From assembly GCA_046704325.1 (NCBI GenBank), contig JBJKSG010000013.1, positions 1 through 37,066 on the forward strand: DNA of 37,066 nt, in the 5' to 3' direction. Of this stretch, positions 6,809-27,879 are shown piece after piece. Position numbers and translations under genes: made by a program. The stretch is from Thermoplasmataceae archaeon (GTDB taxonomy: Archaea; Thermoplasmatota; Thermoplasmata; Thermoplasmatales; Thermoplasmataceae). The stretch's first letter is position 1. Each line of letters begins with the position of its first letter. The notes below the pieces were generated by a model. That model did not search any database, was not told the DNA's origin, and was given only the letters and a program-made list of their open reading frames with translations.

Positions 6809-7936
6809 ATGCATAAGACGTCTGTCAGTCGATTGCAACCTTTTCTATCGATGTCCAAATATTTTGTTGCTTTTGCAACAATGATATTGATCCCTGGACT
6901 TTTCTTAGGTACGTTTAACCAACTCAATTCAGCGCCGAATAACAGCATGCAACTAGCAGTCACCAACGAATCAGCCCACCAGGGTGATTTGCAACTGCCA
7001 TCGACAATTAATAAACTTAATCTTCTACTTAAGCAAGACTTTACTTCATGGTCAAAAAGAAACAAGGTCCAAGTACCATATAACCAGAATGCAAGGATGG
7101 AAGTGTTCGACAGATTTCTGAATAGCAGCAACTATGACGCACAAGCGATGAATAAGTTGACCAGGCTTCAAGAGCAGTCGTTTGGCCTTCAAAATCCGAC
7201 AAAGGCTTCGCAAAATGCATACGTGATTAACCACAGCAAACCTACCGTTATTGGATCCGAAGCTTTCTCTTTGCATGGTCAAAATTACACTGTACTGAAG
7301 GTCAACTACACTCTGCAAGCAAATAACTCTGAAAATATAGTTTCTGCAGCTGTTGTAAGATCTCAAAATGGAAGCCAAATCATTGATCCTCTTGTAGCTG
7401 CTCGGATCGATTATTTATCTGCGTGGCTGATAGGCACATATGGGGAAGTAGATTATATTTACCAGAATTACTTCTATGACACAGTTTCTTTCACGGGAAC
7501 TAATTTAAACGAAGCCTATGCTTATTATGCCGTTTTGCAAGCAATCCAACTTGGTGAGCTTAGTGTAGCTTTCGTTTCAGGTATAGTAGCTTACATGGCA
7601 TCCATATTAGGATTGTCCCTTTGGGTTTTTACTGCGGGATGGGATGCGGCGGATACGACAATCATGCTTCAGACATATGAAAAAGCTTACAATGCCGATT
7701 TGGGGACTGGATACGTTCCAACGGCACTTCAAAATGATTATCTCTACACATGGTACTTTGGAGTTTTGACCGGTAATGGGTGGGGAATACATGTATATGT
7801 GGACGGAACAGGATGGGAAAACGGCCTGATCCCAATGGCATTTAGTGGAATAGATTCAGTTCATCTTTCTAACATTGCGCATTCCTTTGTTAATGAATAT
7901 GGAAATCAGTGCATCTGGCTGGGGGCATACCAGTAG
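6809..7936 (+). CDS. hypothetical secreted/membrane-anchored protein
   Basis: 375 aa. N-terminal hydrophobic signal/anchor (FVAFATMILIPGLFLGTF) and a hydrophobic segment near residue 250. No recognisable catalytic motifs. An alternative ATG is at 6851. The gene appears by eye to sit in lower-GC sequence downstream of the tRNA (not computed). Confidence 0.45.
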   Translation: MHKTSVSRLQPFLSMSKYFVAFATMILIPGLFLGTFNQLNSAPNNSMQLAVTNESAHQGDLQLPSTINKLNLLLKQDFTSWSKRNKVQVPYNQNARMEVFDRFLNSSNYDAQAMNKLTRLQEQSFGLQNPTKASQNAYVINHSKPTVIGSEAFSLHGQNYTVLKVNYTLQANNSENIVSAAVVRSQNGSQIIDPLVAARIDYLSAWLIGTYGEVDYIYQNYFYDTVSFTGTNLNEAYAYYAVLQAIQLGELSVAFVSGIVAYMASILGLSLWVFTAGWDAADTTIMLQTYEKAYNADLGTGYVPTALQNDYLYTWYFGVLTGNGWGIHVYVDGTGWENGLIPMAFSGIDSVHLSNIAHSFVNEYGNQCIWLGAYQ

Positions 7937-7939
7937 GGG

Positions 7940-8527
7940 TTGATCCGTATTTCGATTGTTTTAATTTTGATATTGCTCTGGATTTTGACTTTGGTACCAG
8001 GGATAATTTATGTTTCTCTAGAAATCAAGAGACTGCGTCGAACAAGACTTTCAATGGTTTCCTTCCCTGTATCTTCATTAGGGGGATATGTTGTAATAGC
8101 TGCATATGAAAGTATTACCAACATCAATAATGTCAACTACCACTTTACGTCCTTTTTTTTCTATCTTGCAACCGCAGGTTTTATTGTTATGACAGTTGCA
8201 TATATTGCGGTTGAATTATCTATTCGTCTTCATATAGAACTCCAAGGTAATATGGTTAAACCCAAAGTTTTCAGGAATAAGCATAAAAGCGTTAAAGCCC
8301 CGTTGGAAACAGATGATGAAATTATAAAGAATGAGAGGTACCTGCGTTTCGCATTCATGTTATCCCTTATAGCTTGGCTCTCATTATATGGATTCCGCTA
8401 TCTAAATCTTATTCCAGATGACTTCCTTTATAGCGGGGCTTTATTGCCGTCAGTTGCGTTGTTCACGATATTATTCTTCCTTTTCTGGGTTCTTTACTAT
8501 TTCTCATCAAGAAGAGTCAGGCATTGA
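7940..8527 (+). CDS. hypothetical integral membrane protein (about 4 TM)
   Basis: 195 aa. Starts 4 nt after the preceding stop, so probably co-transcribed. Four strongly hydrophobic helices (ISIVLILILLWILTLVPGIIYV, FFFYLATAGFIVMTVAYIAV, LSLIAWLSLYGF, PSVALFTILFFLFWVLYYF). Confidence 0.45.
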   Translation: MIRISIVLILILLWILTLVPGIIYVSLEIKRLRRTRLSMVSFPVSSLGGYVVIAAYESITNINNVNYHFTSFFFYLATAGFIVMTVAYIAVELSIRLHIELQGNMVKPKVFRNKHKSVKAPLETDDEIIKNERYLRFAFMLSLIAWLSLYGFRYLNLIPDDFLYSGALLPSVALFTILFFLFWVLYYFSSRRVRH

Positions 8528-8897
8528 TTGATAATATTTCTTAGGATATCCAGCCTCGTTTGCCTTCATTTATGGAAATAAACCTAATCCTAACTTCACC
8601 TCAGTTTTAAACTGTGATTACTGGGCGACAAAGTGTTTTACCGCATCTTGCATTACAAAAGTGTTCAGAAATGCAATGTTTTTATTATGAGGGCCATCAG
8701 AAGTACCTGCACATCGGCGATTACAGTAATGGGAGGGTGAAACGCAAAACAATAGTAAATAAATTCCCCCTCCTTAACGTCAATAAAATATATTTTTATG
8801 ATTGATTGTGCTTTTGAAGCTTCACTCAGGCCAAGCCGGAGCATGAACCCTATCATTGAAACAAGAACCCAAGGAATTCCGATCTCGCGACATGGAT

Positions 8898-9458
8898 TTA
8901 ACCTCGATTTGCAACGTCACCAATCTTTGAAGCATATTCTCTGAGTTTTGACCAGTTCACTTTCTTCTCCAAAGAGGACATGGTTTCAGGGTCCAGATTA
9001 ATGTTATAGTATTCGAAATCAAGTAGGGTCTTCTCCAAGTCTGATACTGGAACAAATAGGCCTCCGTAATTCAGATATTCAAAGCCAAATAATGCTTTTT
9101 CATCAATCCTGTGCAATATTATTTTGATTCCCATTATCTCACGTACCCCGGGGTTTGCCATGGTGTTCGTTATAATTACAGGAACGGACTGTTGTGTCCA
9201 GATCTTTCTAATTGTTAGTGCATACTGAAGTCCATAGTAAAATGGCCTGAACTTGAATCCAACTGCGACTTCATTTCGGTGAAATGTGTATGCCCCCTTG
9301 CCCAATCTGTACAATCTTCCAGATTTGACAAGGTTGTGAAGCATCAGTCTTATGTAGGGTTCACCTGCTCCTTGACTAACCAGAAACCTTCTTGCATCAT
9401 TTGTAGTGAACATGGTCTGCTTTGAAAAGAATTCAATGAAGTATGTCTCATATTTCAT
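8898..9458 (-). CDS. AbiEi-like (COG5340) winged-HTH protein, putative antitoxin/transcriptional regulator of a type IV TA or abortive-infection pair
   Basis: 186 aa. The N-terminal wHTH carries the characteristic G-L-R-x-RGvY motif (LVKSGRLYRLGKGAYTF). The C-terminal domain carries the conserved (E)(R/K)TLLD motif (VSDLEKTLLDF). It overlaps the upstream NTase gene by 11 nt, which suggests translational coupling. Confidence 0.65.
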   Translation of the reverse strand: MKYETYFIEFFSKQTMFTTNDARRFLVSQGAGEPYIRLMLHNLVKSGRLYRLGKGAYTFHRNEVAVGFKFRPFYYGLQYALTIRKIWTQQSVPVIITNTMANPGVREIMGIKIILHRIDEKALFGFEYLNYGGLFVPVSDLEKTLLDFEYYNINLDPETMSSLEKKVNWSKLREYASKIGDVANRG

Positions 9459-10089
9459 TTACCCACCTTTTTATATAATCTACCATGCGAACAAAATTCA
9501 GACCTTCAGCTCCAGCATAAAGGAGTGAACTCAATATGCCTTCGTTAACAGGCGCTTTTATTTCACGTAAGAAATTTGACAATTCCACTTTCACTGTGTA
9601 ATCCGTCTTGTCTAACCAGTTTGTCAGAACATAAAGATCATAAATGTCCCTTATAAATCTCCTGCCATGGTAGGCTTCTATCTTCCTGATCATCAATTCT
9701 GTCGGGCTTAGCACGCTTATTGTCTTAACGCTCCCATCGGTTCGCGAATAAGCCCTTATCTCATTTTCAGCGAATCCAGGTTTTGATTCAATGAGGATGT
9801 CAATTTCATTTCTGCCAATCCTAGCCCTTGTCGGAAGATCTGGGTCCTGCCAAATAAGCTTCATACCATTTTCTTCTAGAGATGAGATGAAGTCATCAAA
9901 TGCAGTTCTCTCAAGGTAGATGTCAAGACCATCTGAAAAACGCATTCCTCCAAAACATCTACAGATTGCAGTACCACCATAGAGGAGTGCATTACTCTGG
10001 AAACTATCATAAATTAGGTCTATCACATAATCCTGAAGTTCAGCAAGCCTCAGCCTTTGACCACTAAGGTATGATCCAATTGGTTTCAC
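9448..10089 (-). CDS. AbiEii/AbiGii-family (DUF1814) nucleotidyltransferase, putative toxin
   Basis: 213 aa. N-terminal NTase motif hGGTA(l) ... R(F)SxDLD(i) is present as LLYGGTAICRCFGGMRFSDGLDIYLE. C-terminal RDlYDL motif is present as RDIYDLYVL. Both are family signatures from established knowledge; identity was not measured. Confidence 0.7.
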   Translation of the reverse strand: MKPIGSYLSGQRLRLAELQDYVIDLIYDSFQSNALLYGGTAICRCFGGMRFSDGLDIYLERTAFDDFISSLEENGMKLIWQDPDLPTRARIGRNEIDILIESKPGFAENEIRAYSRTDGSVKTISVLSPTELMIRKIEAYHGRRFIRDIYDLYVLTNWLDKTDYTVKVELSNFLREIKAPVNEGILSSLLYAGAEGLNFVRMVDYIKRWVNEI

Positions 10090-10511
10090 TTAAATATGTA
10101 ATTGTTATATTATATTATAACTTTCACTGATTGTTTGTTGATGAATAATTCAGTTAATATATTTACTTAGGCAGTGTGTGCGAAATAAGTTGAACCGATT
10201 AGCTGCAAAGTATATTTTTTCATCAATTTGTCGAGATTTAAGAGAATTTGAGTTAGCAACTCTTCGTAAATCTATTCCTTCGTTCGGTATAGAATATTGA
10301 TCTCATAATATCTGGGTCCTATCATTATTTATCAGATAAACAGAGTTCTTTTAGCCATATTCTAATACAGTTCCGATCTGGGAATAACTGCTCATCCCAC
10401 CTATGCCGTTTCTTATAACGATTTTCTTCATGAGTGTTTAGAACAGTTCCTTCTGACATGATACCAAGTACCTGTAAAGCACATGCATATACAGTATGAG
10501 CAGTTTCAAAA

Positions 10512-10528
10512 TATATATATATATATCA
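10512..10528. repeat. (AT)8 dinucleotide repeat / TATA-like promoter element
   Basis: atatatatatatatatc lies immediately upstream of ORF 10536..11291. The spacing fits a leaderless start at the ATG at 10548 better than at 10536. Confidence 0.5.
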
Positions 10529-10535
10529 AAGAAGC

Positions 10536-11291
10536 ATGGTTTTGAATATGCTCGAGAAGAGGAGCAGGTGGATCGCATTCTTCTCTGTAATAGCTGCGAT
10601 TATTGTGATAGTATCTGTGTTATACTATGAGACGCCTCAACAAAGAAATGCTCCTTGCCCCCTACAACCTAATGTAACCATACATAACGGCACTCTGAAT
10701 CATACCTGGAACGGAGCCTTCGTATTCTCAATATCCGTATTAGGCAATTTATCAACGGTACTAACAATAAGTGAACCCGGCTACCCTGAATCCACTGTAA
10801 ACCTTTCGATTCGGGGGTTCGGTATTTCAAACTGTATTATTGATTTCTTTGTGAACGTCTCCGGTCATCTCGCAACGAATCTTCCGATCTCATCATTTGT
10901 TCTGAATCAGACCTTATCGGGCCCACCCCAGGCCATGAACCGCTTCATGCTTGGTGATATGGCAGGTAACCCGCAGAATTTTATACCTCAGTACAAGTGG
11001 TTCAATTCTACCCCAAATTGGGGGAAGACGATAAGGTTCTTCCCGGCGACTGTCGGTACAAATGAATTCTACTTTGGACTCTCCTTATACTCTAACCTTA
11101 CAAACGATACAATTCCGGAATCCAACAACAGCAGCCTGTATAACTTCTCAAGTTTTGAGTGCAGCATAATCTACGTAACTAATTGGGAGTCAAACACTTC
11201 TTGGCAGTACAATTATAACTTCCCCTTATCCATGATTGGACTGACAAAGCAGGTTAGTTCCCAGATCGATCTTAGGCTTGTGGATGGATAA
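10536..11291 (+). CDS. hypothetical secreted protein with N-terminal signal anchor and very high N-glycosylation sequon density
   Basis: 251 aa. Signal anchor WIAFFSVIAAIIVIVSVLYY. At least 15 N-x-S/T sequons (NGT, NHT, NLS, NVS, NQT, NST, NLT, NDT, NNSS, NFS, NTS...). Start may be the ATG at 10548. Confidence 0.45.
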   Translation: MVLNMLEKRSRWIAFFSVIAAIIVIVSVLYYETPQQRNAPCPLQPNVTIHNGTLNHTWNGAFVFSISVLGNLSTVLTISEPGYPESTVNLSIRGFGISNCIIDFFVNVSGHLATNLPISSFVLNQTLSGPPQAMNRFMLGDMAGNPQNFIPQYKWFNSTPNWGKTIRFFPATVGTNEFYFGLSLYSNLTNDTIPESNNSSLYNFSSFECSIIYVTNWESNTSWQYNYNFPLSMIGLTKQVSSQIDLRLVDG

Positions 11292-15621: not shown

Positions 15622-16815
15622 TCATGAACCTTCATTTCTCAGCTTCCTTGCAATGAATATCCTGTCTCCATTTCTGAACAGGTATACCCTTTCTCCAGAC
15701 CAGTCCTTATTCGTAATAGAAGCAACAAACCGGTAATATCTCACGGGATCCAGGTTGTATCTCGGAATAACCCGTGATGGACGCAATCTCGCAAGTTCAT
15801 CACTTAGGCTAGAAGCATCGGTTTCTTTCAGGATCTCGTAATATTCACCATTTTCCTGTAGAGAATCGATTTTATCAGAGGTGAGGACAATTCTCCTGTT
15901 GTCCCTGAAATAGCAGGTATACATGGATGGATCGAACACCTCGTTAAGGAGGTTGGAATACACGATAGAAGGATCCGGTAATATAAAGAAAGCACCCGGA
16001 TGTACCGAAGTTTCATATTCAGTGGAATCCGCAGTACCTTCAATCCTCCTGCCTGAAGGAAGCTGAACCGCAGATCTTTCCGCTTTCATTATATCTTTTG
16101 AGTAATACGTCAATCTGGAAAGTCGCCCATTTATTGAGATATACTCCCTCTCCCCCTCAAAAGGCAGATTTTGGAGGGGCATCAACGGAGGGAGGTCAAA
16201 AATAAAATCATTGCTCTTCGGAGCTGCTCTGAGTAATTCGTCTGGTCTCGGATCCAGAGTTTCCAGTGTTTTTTCGCTTCTACCAGCTAATCTGACAGGA
16301 TCGCTGAACAGAACCGAATCCTGAACCTTTGCGCAATAGTTAAGCGCGTCGTCTCTTATGACGGAAAGATTCGATTCATACGATATTGCGTTAAGCTTCC
16401 CCAGGGCAACTCGCTTCCTGTCTCTTTCAATGGCAGTAACCTCATCGCTGACAAGGGAGAACATAATGGACTGCATGCATGCACCGGCCCCGAGGTCCAG
16501 TATCTCCCTGTTTCCAACCCTTGAGGCCCTGTAATTCCCTATAATTTCGGGGGTTGAATATGAGGCTGAATAAGAATCAAGCCACATCTCTTTGGACCTG
16601 GAAAATTTCTTCTCAACAGATACCCTGGCCCTTGATAATTCAAACATCAGGTCTGAATAATTGCGATATTGCGATGCTATTCGAATGGACTTTGGAAGAT
16701 ACCCACTAGCCTGGAGATCTGCTATCCTGTTCACCTCATAGCTTGCAGATTCTCTTAGCTTCTGAGAATCGAGCAGCTTTTCCAGGAACCTTGCTTCTCC
16801 TGTATCATCGGGCAT
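15622..16815 (-). CDS. class I SAM-dependent methyltransferase, target unknown (possibly RNA amino-methyltransferase-like)
   Basis: 397 aa. Motif I ILDLGAGAC, acidic motif II (AIERD) and a motif IV-like LFSDPVR (DPxR rather than DPPY). Long N- and C-terminal extensions. Confidence 0.5.
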   Translation of the reverse strand: MPDDTGEARFLEKLLDSQKLRESASYEVNRIADLQASGYLPKSIRIASQYRNYSDLMFELSRARVSVEKKFSRSKEMWLDSYSASYSTPEIIGNYRASRVGNREILDLGAGACMQSIMFSLVSDEVTAIERDRKRVALGKLNAISYESNLSVIRDDALNYCAKVQDSVLFSDPVRLAGRSEKTLETLDPRPDELLRAAPKSNDFIFDLPPLMPLQNLPFEGEREYISINGRLSRLTYYSKDIMKAERSAVQLPSGRRIEGTADSTEYETSVHPGAFFILPDPSIVYSNLLNEVFDPSMYTCYFRDNRRIVLTSDKIDSLQENGEYYEILKETDASSLSDELARLRPSRVIPRYNLDPVRYYRFVASITNKDWSGERVYLFRNGDRIFIARKLRNEGS

Positions 16816-18801: not shown

Positions 18802-19452
18802 ATGGATTACCGCTCGGTTGTCAGGGAAGCTGTAAGGAATTCCGGTATAGAGGGTGTGATATCGATCGACATCGAGACCCTGATGCCCCCTGGTACTTTA
18901 TTTCTCTCCGGGGAGAGAATAATAGCTATATCGGTCAGCTGGGCCACCGGGCATGTCAACTCACAGGTGTATATGGCGGAGGATGATACCCCTGACTCGG
19001 AATACAATATTCTCGACCTACTGAACACAAAGCTGAGGGAAATGGATCCGCAGATTATCATTGGCTATAACCACACTGGTTATGACATACCTCTCATCCA
19101 GATGAAAGTCAAGCATCTCGAATATTCCAGAAGACTCAGGGATATAGAGAAGGCGTTTGGAACGGCTTATTGTCTCGACATGATGTACCCGATAGCAGAA
19201 GACCTGGGGAAATATGACGGAGATTTCTACATCAGGAAGCTCGAGGATGTCGTGTCGCATGAAGCATACAGCCACCTGAACCTATCAAGAAACAAAAGCC
19301 TGGTCAAGATACCGGATAAATCGAAGGGGGAAGCAATCATTCATCTCTGGAAAAATGACAGGGACAAATTCCTGAAATACTGTATCGGTGATACCAGGGA
19401 CCTGATGCTCATATTCATGGATATGTTTGGCCTAAACTCTTCCAAACTTTGA
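18802..19452 (+). CDS. stand-alone PolB-type DEDDy 3'-5' exonuclease (COG3298 / DNA_pol_B_exo2-like)
   Basis: 216 aa. Exo I SIDIET (D-x-E), Exo II YNHTGYDIPLI (Y/F-N-x3-F/Y-D) and Exo III KYCIGDTRDL (Y-x3-D) are arranged as in family B polymerase proofreading domains. Confidence 0.6.
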   Translation: MDYRSVVREAVRNSGIEGVISIDIETLMPPGTLFLSGERIIAISVSWATGHVNSQVYMAEDDTPDSEYNILDLLNTKLREMDPQIIIGYNHTGYDIPLIQMKVKHLEYSRRLRDIEKAFGTAYCLDMMYPIAEDLGKYDGDFYIRKLEDVVSHEAYSHLNLSRNKSLVKIPDKSKGEAIIHLWKNDRDKFLKYCIGDTRDLMLIFMDMFGLNSSKL

Positions 19453-21645: not shown

Positions 21646-21763
21646 CTATTGCCCTCAGTCGGGGTTGTCTCTCGTTATAATACAGGTAGTAGATAAACTT
21701 GGCCCTCTCCCCGCTGTTGAGAATGGACGTCAGGGTCATTTAGCCAACATCTAAATATACAGT

Positions 21764-21772
21764 ATTTATAGC
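21764..21772 (+). promoter_or_regulatory. TATA-like box for the 21794-24515 operon
   Basis: tatttatag is centred about 26 nt upstream of the ATG at 21794, consistent with a leaderless transcript. Confidence 0.4.
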
Positions 21773-21793
21773 TACGCGGTTGGTGTCATTTCA

Positions 21794-22351
21794 ATGAGCG
21801 CATCGAATCCGGACATTAGGAATGAGGTAGATAACAGCAGAGGTCTCATCAAGAAGATACAGCTTGTTGTCCCGGGATTCAGGGGTTACAGGCAGCTCGA
21901 GGATCTGAGAGCGGCAGACGAGCTCCTGAGAAAGCAGGTTGCATCTTACCTGCAGATTGCTGAGTCAAAACTGCAGGATTTCAGGACTTCACTCTCCACT
22001 TCGGGAAACTTCCAGTATCTGACGCAGGTTGCATCTGCGCTTTCGAGGTTACAGCAGTTTGAAGGCGAACTCCTGCACTCGGAGCAGGGTTACACTGGAT
22101 TTTCTCCGATGATCAGGATCGACGCCCAGAAACTCAACGCCCTCTACGAATACGATTATACTTTCCTGCAATCTGCATCTGAAATGGTGAACCTATCTGA
22201 CTGGTCTGCTCTGTCCGGAGATTTCTCGGCCCAGGATCTGCAGCAGAAACTAACATCTCTTGTTTCAGCTATACAGAAGATGAAGAATTCCTGGGAACAG
22301 AGGATTATCACTGTTGAAGAAATAAAGCAGAACCCAGGGGGTCAGAGCTGA
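21794..22351 (+). CDS. hypothetical, predicted largely alpha-helical/coiled-coil protein, first gene of a three-gene operon
   Basis: 185 aa rich in heptad-like Leu/Gln/Glu segments. No recognisable catalytic motif. Its stop overlaps the next gene's ATG by 1 nt. Confidence 0.45.
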   Translation: MSASNPDIRNEVDNSRGLIKKIQLVVPGFRGYRQLEDLRAADELLRKQVASYLQIAESKLQDFRTSLSTSGNFQYLTQVASALSRLQQFEGELLHSEQGYTGFSPMIRIDAQKLNALYEYDYTFLQSASEMVNLSDWSALSGDFSAQDLQQKLTSLVSAIQKMKNSWEQRIITVEEIKQNPGGQS

Positions 22352-23496
22352 TGTTCGGGCGCAAGGGAGGACAGATACCCCCGAAAGGTGGCAGCGTCTT
22401 AGGTTCGATCACAATCGAATGGGATACCCAGTATAAGCAGGGAAACGTTATGTGGAAGGTTCCAAGACTTATACGCCTGAATGACAATATAGTCGTAAGG
22501 GAGGACGAAACTGCGGTATTCTTCAGGGATGGGAAAGTTCTCACTTATTTTGATCAGCCGAACAGGTACGCCCTCACAGACTTCAATGCCCCAATCGTCG
22601 GTACTCTGCTGAAGGACTTCGTCGGGGTACAGCAGTCAGCCGAGGTATACTACATCCAGCGCAGGTTCATCGACGGAAAGTTCGGTAGCCCTGAGCCATA
22701 CCAGTTCACGGATCCGACATTCGGCGTGGTTAACCTGAAAGTATTTGGCGAGTACAGATGGAAGATCTCTGATCCTTCAAACTTTATCACCCAGTTTGTG
22801 GGAACCTTCAACGTCGAAACCTCAGACGAGGTTGAGGACAGGTTGCGAGAACAGATAGTGATCCTTGTCTATAATGCGCTTGGACAACTTAAGGAGAAAG
22901 GTCTCAAGATTACAGACATACCCGCAAGCCTGACTACCATTGAGCAGGTCATCCTGTCGATGGCCCCAGATCATTTCCGCCAGTACGGCGTTGAATTGAA
23001 CAAGATCCAGGGGCTCAACATTTCTCTTCCTGACGAGGTGCAGAAGGCCATAGATACCAGATCTGATATGTCCGTCCTTGGAGTGAATTACCTTCAATAC
23101 CAGGCAGGACAGGCGATGGTTGATGCTGCAAAGAATCCAACCGGAGTGGCTGGAGCGGGCGCCGGCCTCGGAGTCGGACTCGGAGCCGGAATGGGTATGG
23201 GTTATGGCATGACCGGGCAGATGGCTGCAGGTATGCAGCAGCAGAACACCAGAACATGTGCAAAATGCGGGTCTCTGATTCCTGCAAATACGAATTTCTG
23301 CCCTAACTGCGGCGCTCCTGCTGGCAGTCAGACGGTTCCATGTCCAAAATGCGGCACTCAGGTCCCGTCTGGTTCGAAGTTCTGCCCCAACTGCGGGTTC
23401 AACATGACGCAGCAGACAATGAAGAAGTGCCCCAGCTGTGGAGCGGAAGTATCATCTTCAATGAAATTCTGCCCTAACTGCGGAAAGCAAATGTGA
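22351..23496 (+). CDS. SPFH/Band-7 (Band_7_1-like) domain protein with Gly/Met-rich linker and three C-terminal tandem zinc ribbons
   Basis: 381 aa. The region of about 290 aa resembles the bacterial YdjI / virion-core-like SPFH family (Band_7_1). Then a G/M-rich low-complexity stretch GVAGAGAGLGVGLGAGMGMGYGMTGQMAAGM. Then three repeats of C-x-K/S-CG-x9-10-FCPNCG. Confidence 0.7.
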   Translation: MFGRKGGQIPPKGGSVLGSITIEWDTQYKQGNVMWKVPRLIRLNDNIVVREDETAVFFRDGKVLTYFDQPNRYALTDFNAPIVGTLLKDFVGVQQSAEVYYIQRRFIDGKFGSPEPYQFTDPTFGVVNLKVFGEYRWKISDPSNFITQFVGTFNVETSDEVEDRLREQIVILVYNALGQLKEKGLKITDIPASLTTIEQVILSMAPDHFRQYGVELNKIQGLNISLPDEVQKAIDTRSDMSVLGVNYLQYQAGQAMVDAAKNPTGVAGAGAGLGVGLGAGMGMGYGMTGQMAAGMQQQNTRTCAKCGSLIPANTNFCPNCGAPAGSQTVPCPKCGTQVPSGSKFCPNCGFNMTQQTMKKCPSCGAEVSSSMKFCPNCGKQM

Positions 23497-23564
23497 TTTA
23501 CATGTATTGCATAAAATGCGGAGCACAGATACCTGATGATTCCATGTACTGCCAGAAATGCGGG
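23257..23564 (+). repeat. tandem in-frame zinc-ribbon coding repeats (period about 84-87 nt) spanning the boundary between genes 22351..23496 and 23493..24515
   Basis: The nucleotide motif ttctgccc(t/c)aactgcgg recurs at 23296, 23383 and 23467. At the protein level there are three C-x2-C...FCPNCG units in gene 2, plus CIKCG-x10-YCQKCG at the start of gene 3. Confidence 0.6.
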
Positions 23565-24515
23565 GCAAAGCAGGAGCAGCCACAGTCCACACCCTCTCAA
23601 CAGGCGAGTAAGCCGGCCGACTCAAAGATACTGGCTGCACCGACGGTCCAGGAGCTGAAATGTCCTGGCTGTGGTGCACCAATAAAACCGCAGCTTGGTG
23701 AAATGATCATAACCTGCGAGTATTGCGGTACAAGCATATCGCTCGCCAACGAGGGCTGGAAGAGCATCCAGTCGAATACCATGCTCCCGCTGAAGCTGCA
23801 GACCGAAGATTCTGTCGACAAGATAATCAAGGAACACATGGACCACGGGCTGCTCCACAGGCACCTGGAGGAGAAATCAAAGAGTGAGGGCGTAGTCCTC
23901 AGTTTCGTTCCTTACTGGATAGTGCCGGTATCCGCCCGATCTAGGTACACTGCAGTCGATGCCGGTGCAGAGGTGGGAAGAGTTGCAGGAACCGCTATTC
24001 TCGCCGGTTTGCTAGGCGGTGCCATGGGTGGCGGCCGAGGTGGCTTTGGAGGCGGCATGATGGATGGTGTACTTATGGGTGGAGTGATGATGGGCGGATT
24101 TGGTGGCGGAGGAGGTAGCCTGAGATCCTATACGTTGGATCAGAACTACAACTATCCGGTGGTCGCTGTGAAGGGATTGATGGAATACCAGCCCAGAAAC
24201 TATAATTTCAATCTGCCTGACAGGGTGATCTTTGACTCAGCCAAGGTACCGAAAGGGGTAAAACTGCTCAACGGTGATGTTGGAGAGGATTCTGCCAGAT
24301 ATGAGGCCAAAACGAATGTAGACCAGCTCCAGTCTGCCCGGGTACATCAACAGCACCACAGCGTGAGGAGCCTTTCCACGGATTCAGATGTTGCAGAACC
24401 TGAACTGCTGCACGTGCCGATATGGTTTGCAAAATTCGACAACTCAGGTAACAAGATTGCCCTGGTAATTGATGGTCATTCCGGCGGATTGATCAACAGC
24501 ATCGGTCTAGAGTGA
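23493..24515 (+). CDS. double zinc-ribbon protein with Gly/Met-rich low-complexity segment and beta-rich C-terminal domain
   Basis: 340 aa from the GTG at 23493, which overlaps the previous stop; the ATG at 23502 gives MYCIKCG.... Two N-terminal zinc ribbons, a GGAMGGGRGGFGGGMMDGVLMGGVMMGGFGGGGG tract, and a C-terminal region of about 120 aa. Reading frame differs from gene 2. Confidence 0.55.
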   Translation: MIYMYCIKCGAQIPDDSMYCQKCGAKQEQPQSTPSQQASKPADSKILAAPTVQELKCPGCGAPIKPQLGEMIITCEYCGTSISLANEGWKSIQSNTMLPLKLQTEDSVDKIIKEHMDHGLLHRHLEEKSKSEGVVLSFVPYWIVPVSARSRYTAVDAGAEVGRVAGTAILAGLLGGAMGGGRGGFGGGMMDGVLMGGVMMGGFGGGGGSLRSYTLDQNYNYPVVAVKGLMEYQPRNYNFNLPDRVIFDSAKVPKGVKLLNGDVGEDSARYEAKTNVDQLQSARVHQQHHSVRSLSTDSDVAEPELLHVPIWFAKFDNSGNKIALVIDGHSGGLINSIGLE

Positions 24516-24541: not shown

Positions 24542-24793
24542 TTAGGATTGTTCACTCCTTATGTCGGATATTATCAGGATCAATACTAGCCGTATGGCGA
24601 CATACAGGAAGAAGATGCCCACTATGAAATAGATGGCGCCAATCATCTCGAGAGTACTTCCGCCTGGAGAGAATGCAATCGCCTGTTCGAACGCATCATA
24701 CGAATACTTCCAGAGGGTGAGACCGCCTATCAGGGTAACAACAAGCACAGCGATCTTCACGATATCTCTGTAAAGATCCTTTGGTATCTGCAT
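24542..24793 (-). CDS. small hypothetical membrane protein (2 TM)
   Basis: 83 aa with two hydrophobic helices. Convergent with the zinc-ribbon operon. Confidence 0.35.
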   Translation of the reverse strand: MQIPKDLYRDIVKIAVLVVTLIGGLTLWKYSYDAFEQAIAFSPGGSTLEMIGAIYFIVGIFFLYVAIRLVLILIISDIRSEQS

Positions 24794-24851: not shown

Positions 24852-25178
24852 CTATAGGGATATGAAGAACCTTCCAACAGCTCGCGCGGCGTGGAATAAC
24901 TTGACCGAAGAGAAACTCATGGCACCCCAGATGTATACTCCGATAAGTAAAAAGAGGAACTTGAGCCTCGTCTGCGGCAACAGGAGCAATCCTATGGCGA
25001 GTGATGCCATGATCCCGATCAACATTAAGGAACCAGGCCGGGCGGTATTAATCCGGATCTTTCCCGAGACGCGCCCTTTTCCGAGGCAAGAAACGCATAA
25101 GAGATGCTCGGAATCATTGGAGTAACCTGTCCCTTCACAGCTCTTGCACAGACGTTTCAATTCAGGTCTTAAACGCAA
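24852..25178 (-). CDS. small membrane-anchored protein with DnaJ-type CxxCxGxG zinc-finger
   Basis: 108 aa. CKSCEGTG ... CVSCLGKG (two CxxCxGxG units), followed by two hydrophobic helices. Confidence 0.45.
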   Translation of the reverse strand: MRLRPELKRLCKSCEGTGYSNDSEHLLCVSCLGKGRVSGKIRINTARPGSLMLIGIMASLAIGLLLLPQTRLKFLFLLIGVYIWGAMSFSSVKLFHAARAVGRFFISL

Positions 25179-25208: not shown

Positions 25209-26159
25209 TTATAATTTTCGTTCCCGATATGTGAGGGTGAACTTTTCAAGCCAGTTTTTAGCAATTTTTCTGTTTTTCTCCTCGTATTCAGACGATATAT
25301 TCTTTATAGCAGCGAGATCGTATTTCTCTTTAATAAAGAACTTTCCATCCCTCTCCTCGGAAAAGCCTGCACTCAAAAGAGCATCTATCTTCCTCTCGTC
25401 AAATAACGGTCTTTTTAATTCTCTGGTCCCTCTTGTAAGAAGGTGCATCATTGCTCGGAACGATCTTCCCAGCAGGAATGAGGAATAAGCCTCATCTCTG
25501 GTAAATGACGCGAATTCTGCCTTTATTATTTGGATAAGTTCCTTGGTTTCGTAATGCTCAACGTTTTTGTAAGCTGTAACAAGGGGAATTAGCCTGCCAA
25601 CGGATAATATCTCATCACCCGATATTTTAACGAGTGGAAATATTGATCCTCCAGAAAAGCTGGGTTGCATTTCCATCGCGAAGCCATCGAAATCCACAAT
25701 CGGTCTCCCTTCAACCATCTCCATAAAAGCAGGAGGCATAAAATCATCAGGGATACCCGCTTCATTCTTTACATTGAATACGCACTCTTCTGGAGTCGGT
25801 ATACGTTCCTCTTCCAGATAGATTCGCCTAGCTTCCACGTAGCAACAAAGCTTGATCAGATCAGAGTTTGTCATTTTTTCAGGTATTGTATCCTCACCTA
25901 CCGACCCAGGAAAATCTTCACTCAAGGATAGAAATTTTACACCATCACGAATTTCGAAACTGCCAATGCCGGATAGTTGAGCATGCAAATCATTTTGCGT
26001 GGACATAAGAGATATCTGCTTCTGCGAGAATGGTGCGATGATATACTGCCGCTTCTGCCCATCCGTTAAGGAGAACGCCTCTCCTTTCTCTATGATTCCA
26101 CTGTGCTTTCTTACAGCGTTTAGGTAGCGCAACAGCAGCTGATTTTCATCAATAAGCAT
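25209..26159 (-). CDS. hypothetical protein, probably co-transcribed with ilvE
   Basis: 316 aa. Starts 5 nt after the ilvE stop. No recognisable motifs. Confidence 0.4.
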   Translation of the reverse strand: MLIDENQLLLRYLNAVRKHSGIIEKGEAFSLTDGQKRQYIIAPFSQKQISLMSTQNDLHAQLSGIGSFEIRDGVKFLSLSEDFPGSVGEDTIPEKMTNSDLIKLCCYVEARRIYLEEERIPTPEECVFNVKNEAGIPDDFMPPAFMEMVEGRPIVDFDGFAMEMQPSFSGGSIFPLVKISGDEILSVGRLIPLVTAYKNVEHYETKELIQIIKAEFASFTRDEAYSSFLLGRSFRAMMHLLTRGTRELKRPLFDERKIDALLSAGFSEERDGKFFIKEKYDLAAIKNISSEYEEKNRKIAKNWLEKFTLTYRERKL

Positions 26160-27264: not shown

Positions 27265-27879
27265 ATGGTCGGTGACAAATTCAATTATTATCTCAAAATA
27301 ATATTAAATGCAACCATCGACGAGTATTCTGCAATTTCTGAACAGCTTGAAAATGATCTAGAGCTGTCAGTCGATGAAACTGAGGAACTTGAGCACCTGA
27401 TCTCCAGATATCTTCAGGCTCATAACTATAAGCTTGCTGTCAGAATTATTAACACAGTCACCGGAAATGAGGAGCTCCCTCCAAAGACCAGCGTGGACAA
27501 CTTCGGCGACACTGCTGATTATATTGGAGATGAGGTTAAATATGGGATCTCATGGAAGGTATTTGCTCCAAAACGGGGGTTCCTGATGAGCCCCATGAAG
27601 AAATGGTACTACAACGAGAGGATAGCTTCCATGCTTTCTAAAGCCCTTATTGACGTTATTCCCGGCAGATTCGCCGCCTATTTTGACACTCCTCCGTGGG
27701 TGCTGGGCACGGTGATGGCTCCTGGCTCTCGCTATATCCCGCTTTCTGAGCTCGTTGAACTGGCAATAGCCAAGGGAATTCTTGCCAGATGGGATTCGCT
27801 GGTGGGCTTCGGCATACCCCTTGATTACATCAAAGCCATGAAATCAACGGATATGGGATTCCAGAGAGACTCATCTTAA
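27265..27879 (+). CDS. hypothetical protein
   Basis: 204 aa. No recognisable motif. Divergent from ilvE. Confidence 0.4.
   Translation: MVGDKFNYYLKIILNATIDEYSAISEQLENDLELSVDETEELEHLISRYLQAHNYKLAVRIINTVTGNEELPPKTSVDNFGDTADYIGDEVKYGISWKVFAPKRGFLMSPMKKWYYNERIASMLSKALIDVIPGRFAAYFDTPPWVLGTVMAPGSRYIPLSELVELAIAKGILARWDSLVGFGIPLDYIKAMKSTDMGFQRDSS

Follow-up and report, generated by a model that had tools for sequence, protein, structure and literature searches.

Can an archaeal operon be related to the PspA-YdjGHI membrane-stress system of Bacillus if it encodes neither PspA nor YdjH? This question is raised by three plus-strand genes, here called g1, g2, and g3, at positions 21764-24515 of a 37,066-nucleotide (nt) stretch of a Thermoplasmataceae archaeon (contig JBJKSG010000013.1, assembly GCA_046704325.1), the whole of which is referred to below as the window. 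A preliminary description, made from the sequence alone, had proposed a PspA-YdjGHI-like module serving membrane stress or defence. Part of this proposal held in comparison with Bacillus subtilis, whose YdjGHI proteins have been renamed SamGHI: g2 is of the YdjI type and g3 has the architecture of YdjG, but there is no PspA and no TPM-domain YdjH, and g1 is, by profile comparison, no stand-in for PspA. Since PspA and TPM/YdjH are missing, the trio is not a full PspA-YdjGHI system. The reading that we favor, with a little more confidence than doubt, is that the trio would be a PspA-less, YdjH-less archaeal variant of this system, forming a sub-membrane SPFH scaffold complex.

The SPFH protein g2 (22351-23496, 381 amino acids [aa]) carries the clearest link. 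Its core (aa 41-241, nt 22471-23073) matched the Pfam family Band_7_1 (PF13421) with an E-value of 1e-36 and 127 bits against a cutoff of 24, covering profile positions 11-210 of 211. The core is followed by a linker that is Gly/Ala/Met-rich in composition (roughly aa 263-298, nt 23137-23244) and by three zinc ribbons (aa 303-377, nt 23257-23481) of the C-x2-C...C-P-x-C type, with Cys pairs at 303/317, 331/345, and 360/374 and thus six CxxC pairs. Pfam recognized the ribbons as Zn_Ribbon_1 three times (E 2e-22) and as DZR (E 1.5e-17), so that the proposed order of SPFH core, Gly/Met-rich linker, and three ribbons was borne out. No canonical transmembrane segment was detected in g2, the peak Kyte-Doolittle score over 19 residues being 1.23, within the linker. 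Searches with phmmer connected g2 to a PspA-linked SPFH protein of Chloroflexota (E 2e-34) and to a YdjI-like SPFH protein of Enterococcus (E 1.7e-10), while no sequence relative of the SPFH core was found among solved structures. In B. subtilis, YdjI is a soluble SPFH protein with a low-complexity stretch plus a C-terminal zinc finger, which is recruited to the membrane by YdjG and YdjH and is needed for the formation of PspA foci (PMC8581546). By its sequence, g2 is assigned to the same class, a predicted soluble SPFH protein of the Band_7_1 family and of the YdjI/SamI type. A tblastn search of g2 against plasmids returned 158 records and led to an SPFH operon of Enterococcus; a match on a Nocardia plasmid was set aside because of its unrelated context (SPFH + GNAT).

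YdjG has been described as two zinc ribbons followed by a YpeB-related NTF2-like domain and a hydrophobic segment (Ravi et al. 2024, PMC11237479). Pfam recognized only the two N-terminal ribbons of g3 (Zn_Ribbon_1 E 9e-9, DZR E 3e-7), which lie at nt 23508-23561 (Cys 3/17, CIKC/CQKC) and nt 23661-23726 (Cys 54/72, CPGC/CEYC) when residues are numbered from the ATG start. A Gly/Met-rich hydrophobic tract (aa 158-205, nt 23973-24116), foreseen together with the ribbons in the preliminary description, interrupts a PepSY/YpeB-like alpha/beta region. The AlphaFold2 model (predicted local distance difference test [pLDDT] 70) likewise comprised two ribbons and an alpha/beta region split by the tract, and its best fold matches were YpmB, YpeB, and PepSY. 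The YpeB-related NTF2/PepSY-like globular domain that follows the ribbons in YdjG is therefore found in g3 as well. The tract has a Kyte-Doolittle value of 1.36, under the classical transmembrane values, and g3 has no C-terminal transmembrane helix. The protein has more than 1670 homologues, with identities of 55-60% in Nitrososphaerota and Methanomassiliicoccales, and its alignment is conserved along the whole protein with 78 invariant columns, including glycines inside the Gly/Met-rich tract.

The comparison of g3 with YdjG was made through the operon of Enterococcus gallinarum (pK205-4a-A, locus L082), in which an SPFH gene with a zinc ribbon is followed by a gene for a 374-aa 'TFIIB-type zinc ribbon' protein and then by one for a TPM protein. 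The 374-aa protein begins with MDVITHKCPNC and ends in a C-terminal transmembrane helix (...MIGGYFL), and the published primers for B. subtilis ydjG encode the N-terminus MIISYKCPNC and the C-terminus ...MGGGF (PMC8581546). When the g3 family was aligned by hhalign with the Enterococcus family encoded between the SPFH and TPM genes, a probability of 98.1% (E 1e-13) was obtained over g3 aa 2-150. Since this N-terminal profile homology is combined with the ribbon/YpeB-like architecture, g3 is classified as a predicted YdjG/SamG-type protein, in which the internal Gly/Met-rich tract would replace the C-terminal transmembrane helix. A tblastn search of g3 against plasmids gave no match. Gly-rich low-complexity or hydrophobic tracts recur among these proteins, namely in g2 (aa 263-298), in g3 (aa 158-205), and in the Enterococcus TPM protein (L082:8144-8950, aa 223-265), where the tract forms a C-terminal GRP-like tail; the C-terminus of B. 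subtilis YdjG is also Gly-rich. These tracts could be a common feature serving interaction or membrane insertion.

The arrangement of the trio is conserved. A genome scan with the g1 alignment yielded 80 loci, which together with locus L001 made up an archaeal set of 81. The order g1, g2, g3 on one strand was present in 64 of the 67 genome loci of sufficient length; the contig ended before g3 in 13 others, and one further locus ended right after g1. The trio loci span Thermoplasmata, Nitrososphaerales/Thaumarchaeota (L060, L069), and Bathyarchaeia (L022), and since the same order and strand recur in 64 independent genome loci, the trio is not a chance arrangement. In three archaeal loci g3 is absent or replaced: none was detected in L050, and an unrelated ORF (open reading frame) of about 416-420 aa occupies its place on the same strand in the high-GC Thermoplasmata loci L072 (6799-8058) and L076 (6824-8071). 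Conservation does not extend to the flanking genes, and a divergent permease gene recurs in only six close relatives. The trio thus behaves as an autonomous module.

In a sister clade (L047:119-9731 and about 44-53 other Thermoplasmata loci), the trio lies inside a longer same-strand array, which runs from a TPR-repeat giant (at least 1343 aa) through a 189-aa protein, g1 (233 aa), g2, and g3 to a 651-aa protein. There g1 has an extra N-terminal zinc ribbon, so that all three core proteins carry zinc ribbons. The 189-aa and 651-aa proteins have no Pfam match, and the idea that the 189-aa gene upstream of g1 is a g1 paralogue was rejected (hhalign probability 0.1%).

One operon is the best explanation for the layout of the three ORFs, all of which were confirmed on the plus strand. 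The junction between g1 (21794-22351) and g2 reads TGATG, with the g1 stop codon at 22349-22351 and the g2 ATG at 22351-22353; the overlap of 1 nt that had been described is therefore real, and it indicates translational coupling of g1 and g2. A second proposed overlap, of 4 nt between g2 and g3, requires a GTG start of g3 at 23493 (23493-24515, 340 aa). Since the ATG at 23502 coincides with the first residue of 20 of 20 aligned homologues (MYC/MFC.KCG) and the database gene call also has 337 aa (23502-24515), a 5-nt gap is the probable arrangement, and the genes are probably separated by a spacer instead of overlapping. Upstream, the TATA-like element reported earlier, TATTTATA at 21764-21771 on the plus strand, has its centre some 26 nt ahead of the g1 ATG, and a further AT-rich promoter-like element, TAAATATA, read from the sequence, lies at 21752-21759 on the same strand. 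AT-rich boxes stand at the same distances from the g1 start in the close relatives L002-L007. These elements fit an archaeal promoter for a leaderless or short-leader transcript, and we regard them as a putative promoter. A scan for sigma-70 promoters and intrinsic terminators, which is of a type not applicable to archaea, gave nothing above the shuffled expectation.

The first gene of the operon encodes a 185-aa protein that had been described as a coiled-coil protein lacking a PspA signature. Its AlphaFold2 model (pLDDT 74, predicted template modeling score 0.67) contains four helices (35-69, 73-95, 111-134, and 146-179), so that the helical character was retained and 'coiled-coil' proved imprecise. 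The segment before the helices was modelled with low confidence and is strongly conserved (..IPG..GY...E.RR.AD.LLR). The motifs of g1 are the N-terminal ..IPGFRGYR..EDLRAAD.LLR.., EQGY[ST]G[IF]SP in an inter-helix loop, and LYEYD. The lack of a PspA signature was confirmed: g1 belongs to no Pfam family, 39 of 39 diverse relatives left PspA_IM30, Snf7, and LemA unmatched at E<=1, and the alignment of the g1 family with that of PspA by hhalign reached a probability of 1%. No relationship of g1 to PspA/ESCRT-III is therefore detectable. Sequence and profile searches against solved structures returned chance-level matches only.

One named family does match g1. NCBIfam NF047596 (LIMLP_15305) aligned with it nearly end to end at 30.6 bits (E 3e-7), short of the equivalog cutoff of 210 bits, and 39 of 39 diverse relatives matched the model over its whole length, likewise below its cutoff (best E 6e-20). 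Because the alignment is near full length and the score is below the cutoff, g1 is taken to be a homologue outside the LIMLP_15305 equivalog family. In the searchable literature, LIMLP_15305 appears only as the neighbor of a small RNA in a table of the Leptospira peroxide transcriptome. A profile search of 1.8 billion representatives retrieved 1341 clusters at 50% identity, mostly of about 175 aa, and the closest relatives in genome records (64-70% identity) come from Thermoplasmata and Thermoplasmataceae metagenome-assembled genomes. The g1 proteins probably constitute a new domain family, so far lacking a Pfam model, although they may conceivably be identical to PspAB.

Neither the g1 nor the g2 family is specific to archaea. 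In three distant loci, a g1 domain with a long disordered tail precedes PspA_IM30 (E 6e-42) and a Band_7_1 protein with a zinc ribbon or SHOCT (E 3e-64); the g1-fusion protein of L084 carries the NCBI name Chloroflexia/Chloroflexota. One distant locus has a g1 domain fused to DUF4178, followed by PspA and by Band_7_1 with a zinc ribbon, and in three others g1 directly precedes Band_7_1 with a zinc ribbon, so that the pairing of g1 with Band_7_1 is seen throughout L084-L090. A metagenome scan with a bacterial-type g1 alignment gave 80 loci, 69 of which were informative, since 11 end less than 200 nt from g1. In 69 of these 69, the gene directly downstream of g1 encoded a Band_7_1 SPFH protein (62) or PspA (7). 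The PspA loci comprised four with the order g1, PspA, SPFH and three in which the contig ended after PspA; Band_7_1 thus follows PspA in 4/4 of those extending far enough. These genome, distant, and metagenome locus orders together identify the g1 family and the Band_7_1 SPFH protein as the invariant core pair. As judged from the gene orders, g3 would be an addition in the Thermoplasmata/Nitrososphaerota/Bathyarchaeia branch and PspA an insertion in one bacterial branch.

The bacterial loci showed further features. Genes for DUF2207 membrane proteins, sometimes duplicated, lie directly upstream of bacterial g1 (L084:3929-5863, L086:1178-5341, and 8 of the 80 metagenome loci), which hints at DUF2207 as a further linked component there. 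The bacterial g1 proteins P0305, P0327, P0329, and P0284 (L084, L086, L090) have disordered tails of 200-260 residues rich in Gly/Gln/Pro/Ser/Thr, with a conserved short motif, G[ILV]E[ST]ASSP, close to the C-terminus; in P0321 the g1 domain is fused to DUF4178 instead. At L091:5001-6688, a g1-like gene is followed by one for a 374-aa zinc-ribbon protein with no recorded Band_7_1 match, and about 1 kb upstream there is a phage-type integrase gene; the copy here may be divergent or mobile.

By analogy with the experiments in B. subtilis, we infer that the three archaeal proteins interact physically, associate with the membrane, and have a role under stress. In the proposed mechanism, g3 would lie on the cytoplasmic side of the membrane, its Gly/Met-rich hydrophobic tract probably serving as a re-entrant or interfacial anchor, and would recruit g2, which would oligomerize into a membrane-apposed assembly like other SPFH proteins. 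Through the overlapping stop and start codons, g1 would be made in fixed proportion to g2, to which it would bind as an obligate adaptor or effector, with its N-terminal peptide and polar loop motifs as the likely contact or sensing surface. The output would be the stabilization or repair of stressed membranes, which would be especially relevant to wall-less acidophiles. The complex might also recruit a protein of the ESCRT-III superfamily whose gene lies elsewhere in the genome, and a link of the trio to such proteins is conceivable.

Several observations weigh against the interpretation as a PspA-YdjGHI variant. Queries for PspA, TPM, and DUF2207 found nothing in the window or in the 81 archaeal loci within about 5 kb, so that PspA and TPM/YdjH, the source of the known output of the Bacillus system, are absent from the surroundings of every archaeal locus. 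Since no canonical transmembrane helix was found in g1, g2, or g3 by the Kyte-Doolittle scale, membrane attachment is only inferred. The fold of g1 offers no functional clue. In most non-Thermoplasmata and bacterial contexts g3 is also missing or replaced, and it is therefore not essential to the core pair of g1 and the SPFH protein. The YdjG reference was an Enterococcus protein, called YdjG-like by synteny and by the primer-deduced terminal residues, and not B. subtilis YdjG itself. When the comparison between g3 and the Enterococcus family was restricted to the C-terminal halves, the hhalign result was not significant (probability 2.6%); the two halves do align collinearly and have the motifs LLPVWLVTY/LHVPVWFARF and MNGQTGKV/IDGNSGGVI in common.

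Another reading gives g1 the leading part. The g1 family would be an ancient and hitherto unrecognized class of membrane-acting effectors cooperating with YdjI-type SPFH proteins, and g1 with Band_7_1, not PspA, would be the conserved core of this envelope-stress branch in archaea and bacteria, to which PspA, YdjG, YdjH/TPM, and DUF2207 were attached as lineage-specific additions; where archaea lack PspA, membrane repair would then fall to g1 itself or to g1 as a bridge to ESCRT-III. We consider this idea tentative and rather unlikely.

A little less likely still is a signalling or regulatory device, in which membrane-tethered zinc-ribbon proteins would report the state of the envelope to gene expression and the SPFH protein would modulate them. 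The SamGHI preprint (Baur et al. 2026), which proposes such a device for SamG-SamH, reports for B. subtilis constitutive SamG-SamH stress signalling and a global transcriptional change upon loss of SamI, independent of PspA, and TFIIB-type ribbons have been associated with DNA binding (Popp 2022). The five to six zinc ribbons across the operon and the extra g1 ribbon in the sister clade would suit such a device. However, g1, g2, and g3 contain no helix-turn-helix, kinase, receiver, or sigma/anti-sigma domain, the trio has no conserved regulator gene as a neighbor, and SamH/TPM, the proposed signalling partner of SamG, is absent. Short DZR-type ribbons, moreover, are often modules for protein-protein contacts.

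It is improbable that g2 serves protein quality control by gating or scaffolding a membrane protease or transporter, with g1 and g3 as adaptors, as in HflK/C-FtsH or stomatin-NfeD. Such gating and scaffolding of membrane proteases or transporters is well established for other SPFH families, the window has a divergent permease gene upstream, and one distant locus, L088, has a Peptidase_M48 gene nearby. Nevertheless, neither the trio nor the pair has a conserved protease or NfeD gene next to it, only 6 closely related loci have the permease as a neighbor, and g2 is without the transmembrane anchor used by HflK/C and stomatins.

We attach an equally small probability to g1 being a highly diverged PspA/ESCRT-III-like membrane remodeller, which would make the trio a full functional equivalent of PspA, YdjI, and YdjG. 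The profile comparison reported above argues against a cryptic PspA, and the g1 family co-occurs with a real PspA gene in bacterial loci. Least probable by far is the defence role raised in the preliminary description, an anti-virus (abortive infection) system with an SPFH scaffold: the distant g1-like locus L091 does adjoin a phage-type integrase, but PADLOC gave no significant match for g1, g2, or g3 (best E 0.0095 to 0.27, all to unrelated models), and the g3 identity of 55-60% between phyla, the gene order kept across whole classes, and the housekeeping genes of the window (purK, purC, aIF5B, DHDPS, and an aminotransferase) suggest a cellular function passed on vertically, not a mobile defence island.

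The rest of the window is housekeeping in character, with MMPL and Na/Ca transporters besides the genes just named, and no tRNA genes were found in it. The immediate flanks of the trio were as described earlier and code for a CBS protein, a CitMHS + TrkA_C permease, and a small protein that gave a weak DnaJ-type match. The last of these is encoded by one of two minus-strand ORFs of 83 aa (24542-24793) and 108 aa (24852-25178) that converge on the end of g3; the 108-aa ORF is hydrophobic in its C-terminal half and weakly matches the DnaJ central domain (CxxCxGxG, E 0.002) and Anti-TRAP (E 0.0025), and neither ORF was found as a conserved neighbor of the trio. A 216-aa plus-strand ORF (18802-19452), for whose L001 copy a DNA_pol_B_exo1 match was precomputed, would be a stand-alone family-B polymerase exonuclease-like protein. 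The ORFs at 25209-26159 (minus strand, 316 aa), 6809-7936 (plus strand, 375 aa), 15622-16815 (minus strand, 397 aa), and 27265-27879 (plus strand, 204 aa) had no Pfam match at the thresholds used. Positions 8001-11000 have a GC content of 0.38-0.40, compared with 0.43-0.54 in most of the window, and could be a foreign or differently constrained segment.

YdjI-type SPFH proteins are understood only through one Bacillus operon, where PspA defines their role. Across archaea and many bacteria, this SPFH subfamily is paired with a four-helix protein that has no name, and PspA is usually missing, which makes both the role of YdjI/SamI-type SPFH proteins on their own and the identity of the conserved partner testable. 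The trio is a candidate envelope-maintenance system for wall-less acidophilic Thermoplasmata and ammonia-oxidising Nitrososphaerota, in which few envelope-stress systems are known, and it provides a data point for the proposed ancient connection between SPFH scaffolds and the ESCRT-III superfamily. With its 1341 clusters, the g1 family could be defined as a new domain family. Overall, the trio is a solid and testable comparative-genomics lead rather than a categorically new system.

This assessment follows from the comparison with known systems. In agreement with the preliminary description, no account of the trio, or of the g1 + Band_7_1 pair, was found in the searchable literature. The B. 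subtilis PspA-YdjGHI system resembles the archaeal operon in that YdjI corresponds to g2 and YdjG to g3 and in that the genes are co-operonic. It differs in gene order and in possessing PspA and the TPM-domain YdjH, while the archaeal g2 has three ribbons, g3 has an internal Gly/Met tract in contrast to the C-terminal transmembrane helix of YdjG, and the operon opens with g1, which is not among the components named in the cited descriptions of pspA-ydjGHI. The Enterococcus L082 operon has its SPFH gene with zinc ribbon directly before the gene of the two-ribbon protein, the same order as g2 and g3, but it includes a TPM protein and a C-terminal transmembrane anchor and is without a g1-family gene. 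The g1-PspA_IM30-Band_7_1 operons of L084-L087, which also occur in soil metagenomes, contain the same g1 family and SPFH subfamily on one strand with g1 first; in contrast to the archaeal trio, PspA stands between them, g1 bears a disordered Gly/Gln/Pro/Ser tail or DUF4178, and DUF2207 often lies upstream. No YdjG-like gene was detected downstream in these operons.

Among other SPFH systems, HflK/C-FtsH and stomatin-NfeD have the SPFH fold in common with g2, and oligomeric membrane-apposed assemblies are expected in each case, but their SPFH proteins are membrane-anchored and paired with proteases, whereas g2 is predicted to be soluble and has no linked protease. Among the small partners of PspA, PspAA and PspAB are, like g1, uncharacterized proteins encoded beside PspA in archaea, Chloroflexi, and Actinobacteria (Ravi et al. 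2024). PspAA, which is described as three helices with a four-stranded sheet, was rejected as an identity for g1 on secondary structure, since four helices and no sheet are predicted for g1; this distinction is by description. PspAB, a domain of the Tfu_1009 type, pairs with a membrane metallopeptidase, and no metallopeptidase gene is conserved beside g1. Makarova et al. (2024, PMC11188069) reported SPFH, coiled-coil, and zinc-ribbon proteins in the archaeal 'Meth_adaptin' ESCRT loci and cited YdjI-PspA as a possible ancient link between SPFH and ESCRT-III. These loci, likened to g2 by description, also tie an archaeal SPFH protein and zinc ribbons by context to ESCRT-III-superfamily machinery; unlike the g1-g2-g3 locus, they contain Vps4, ESCRT-III, and adaptin-like proteins. 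Within this range of systems, g2 and g3 belong, to judge from their sequences, to families with a known link to the Psp envelope-stress network.

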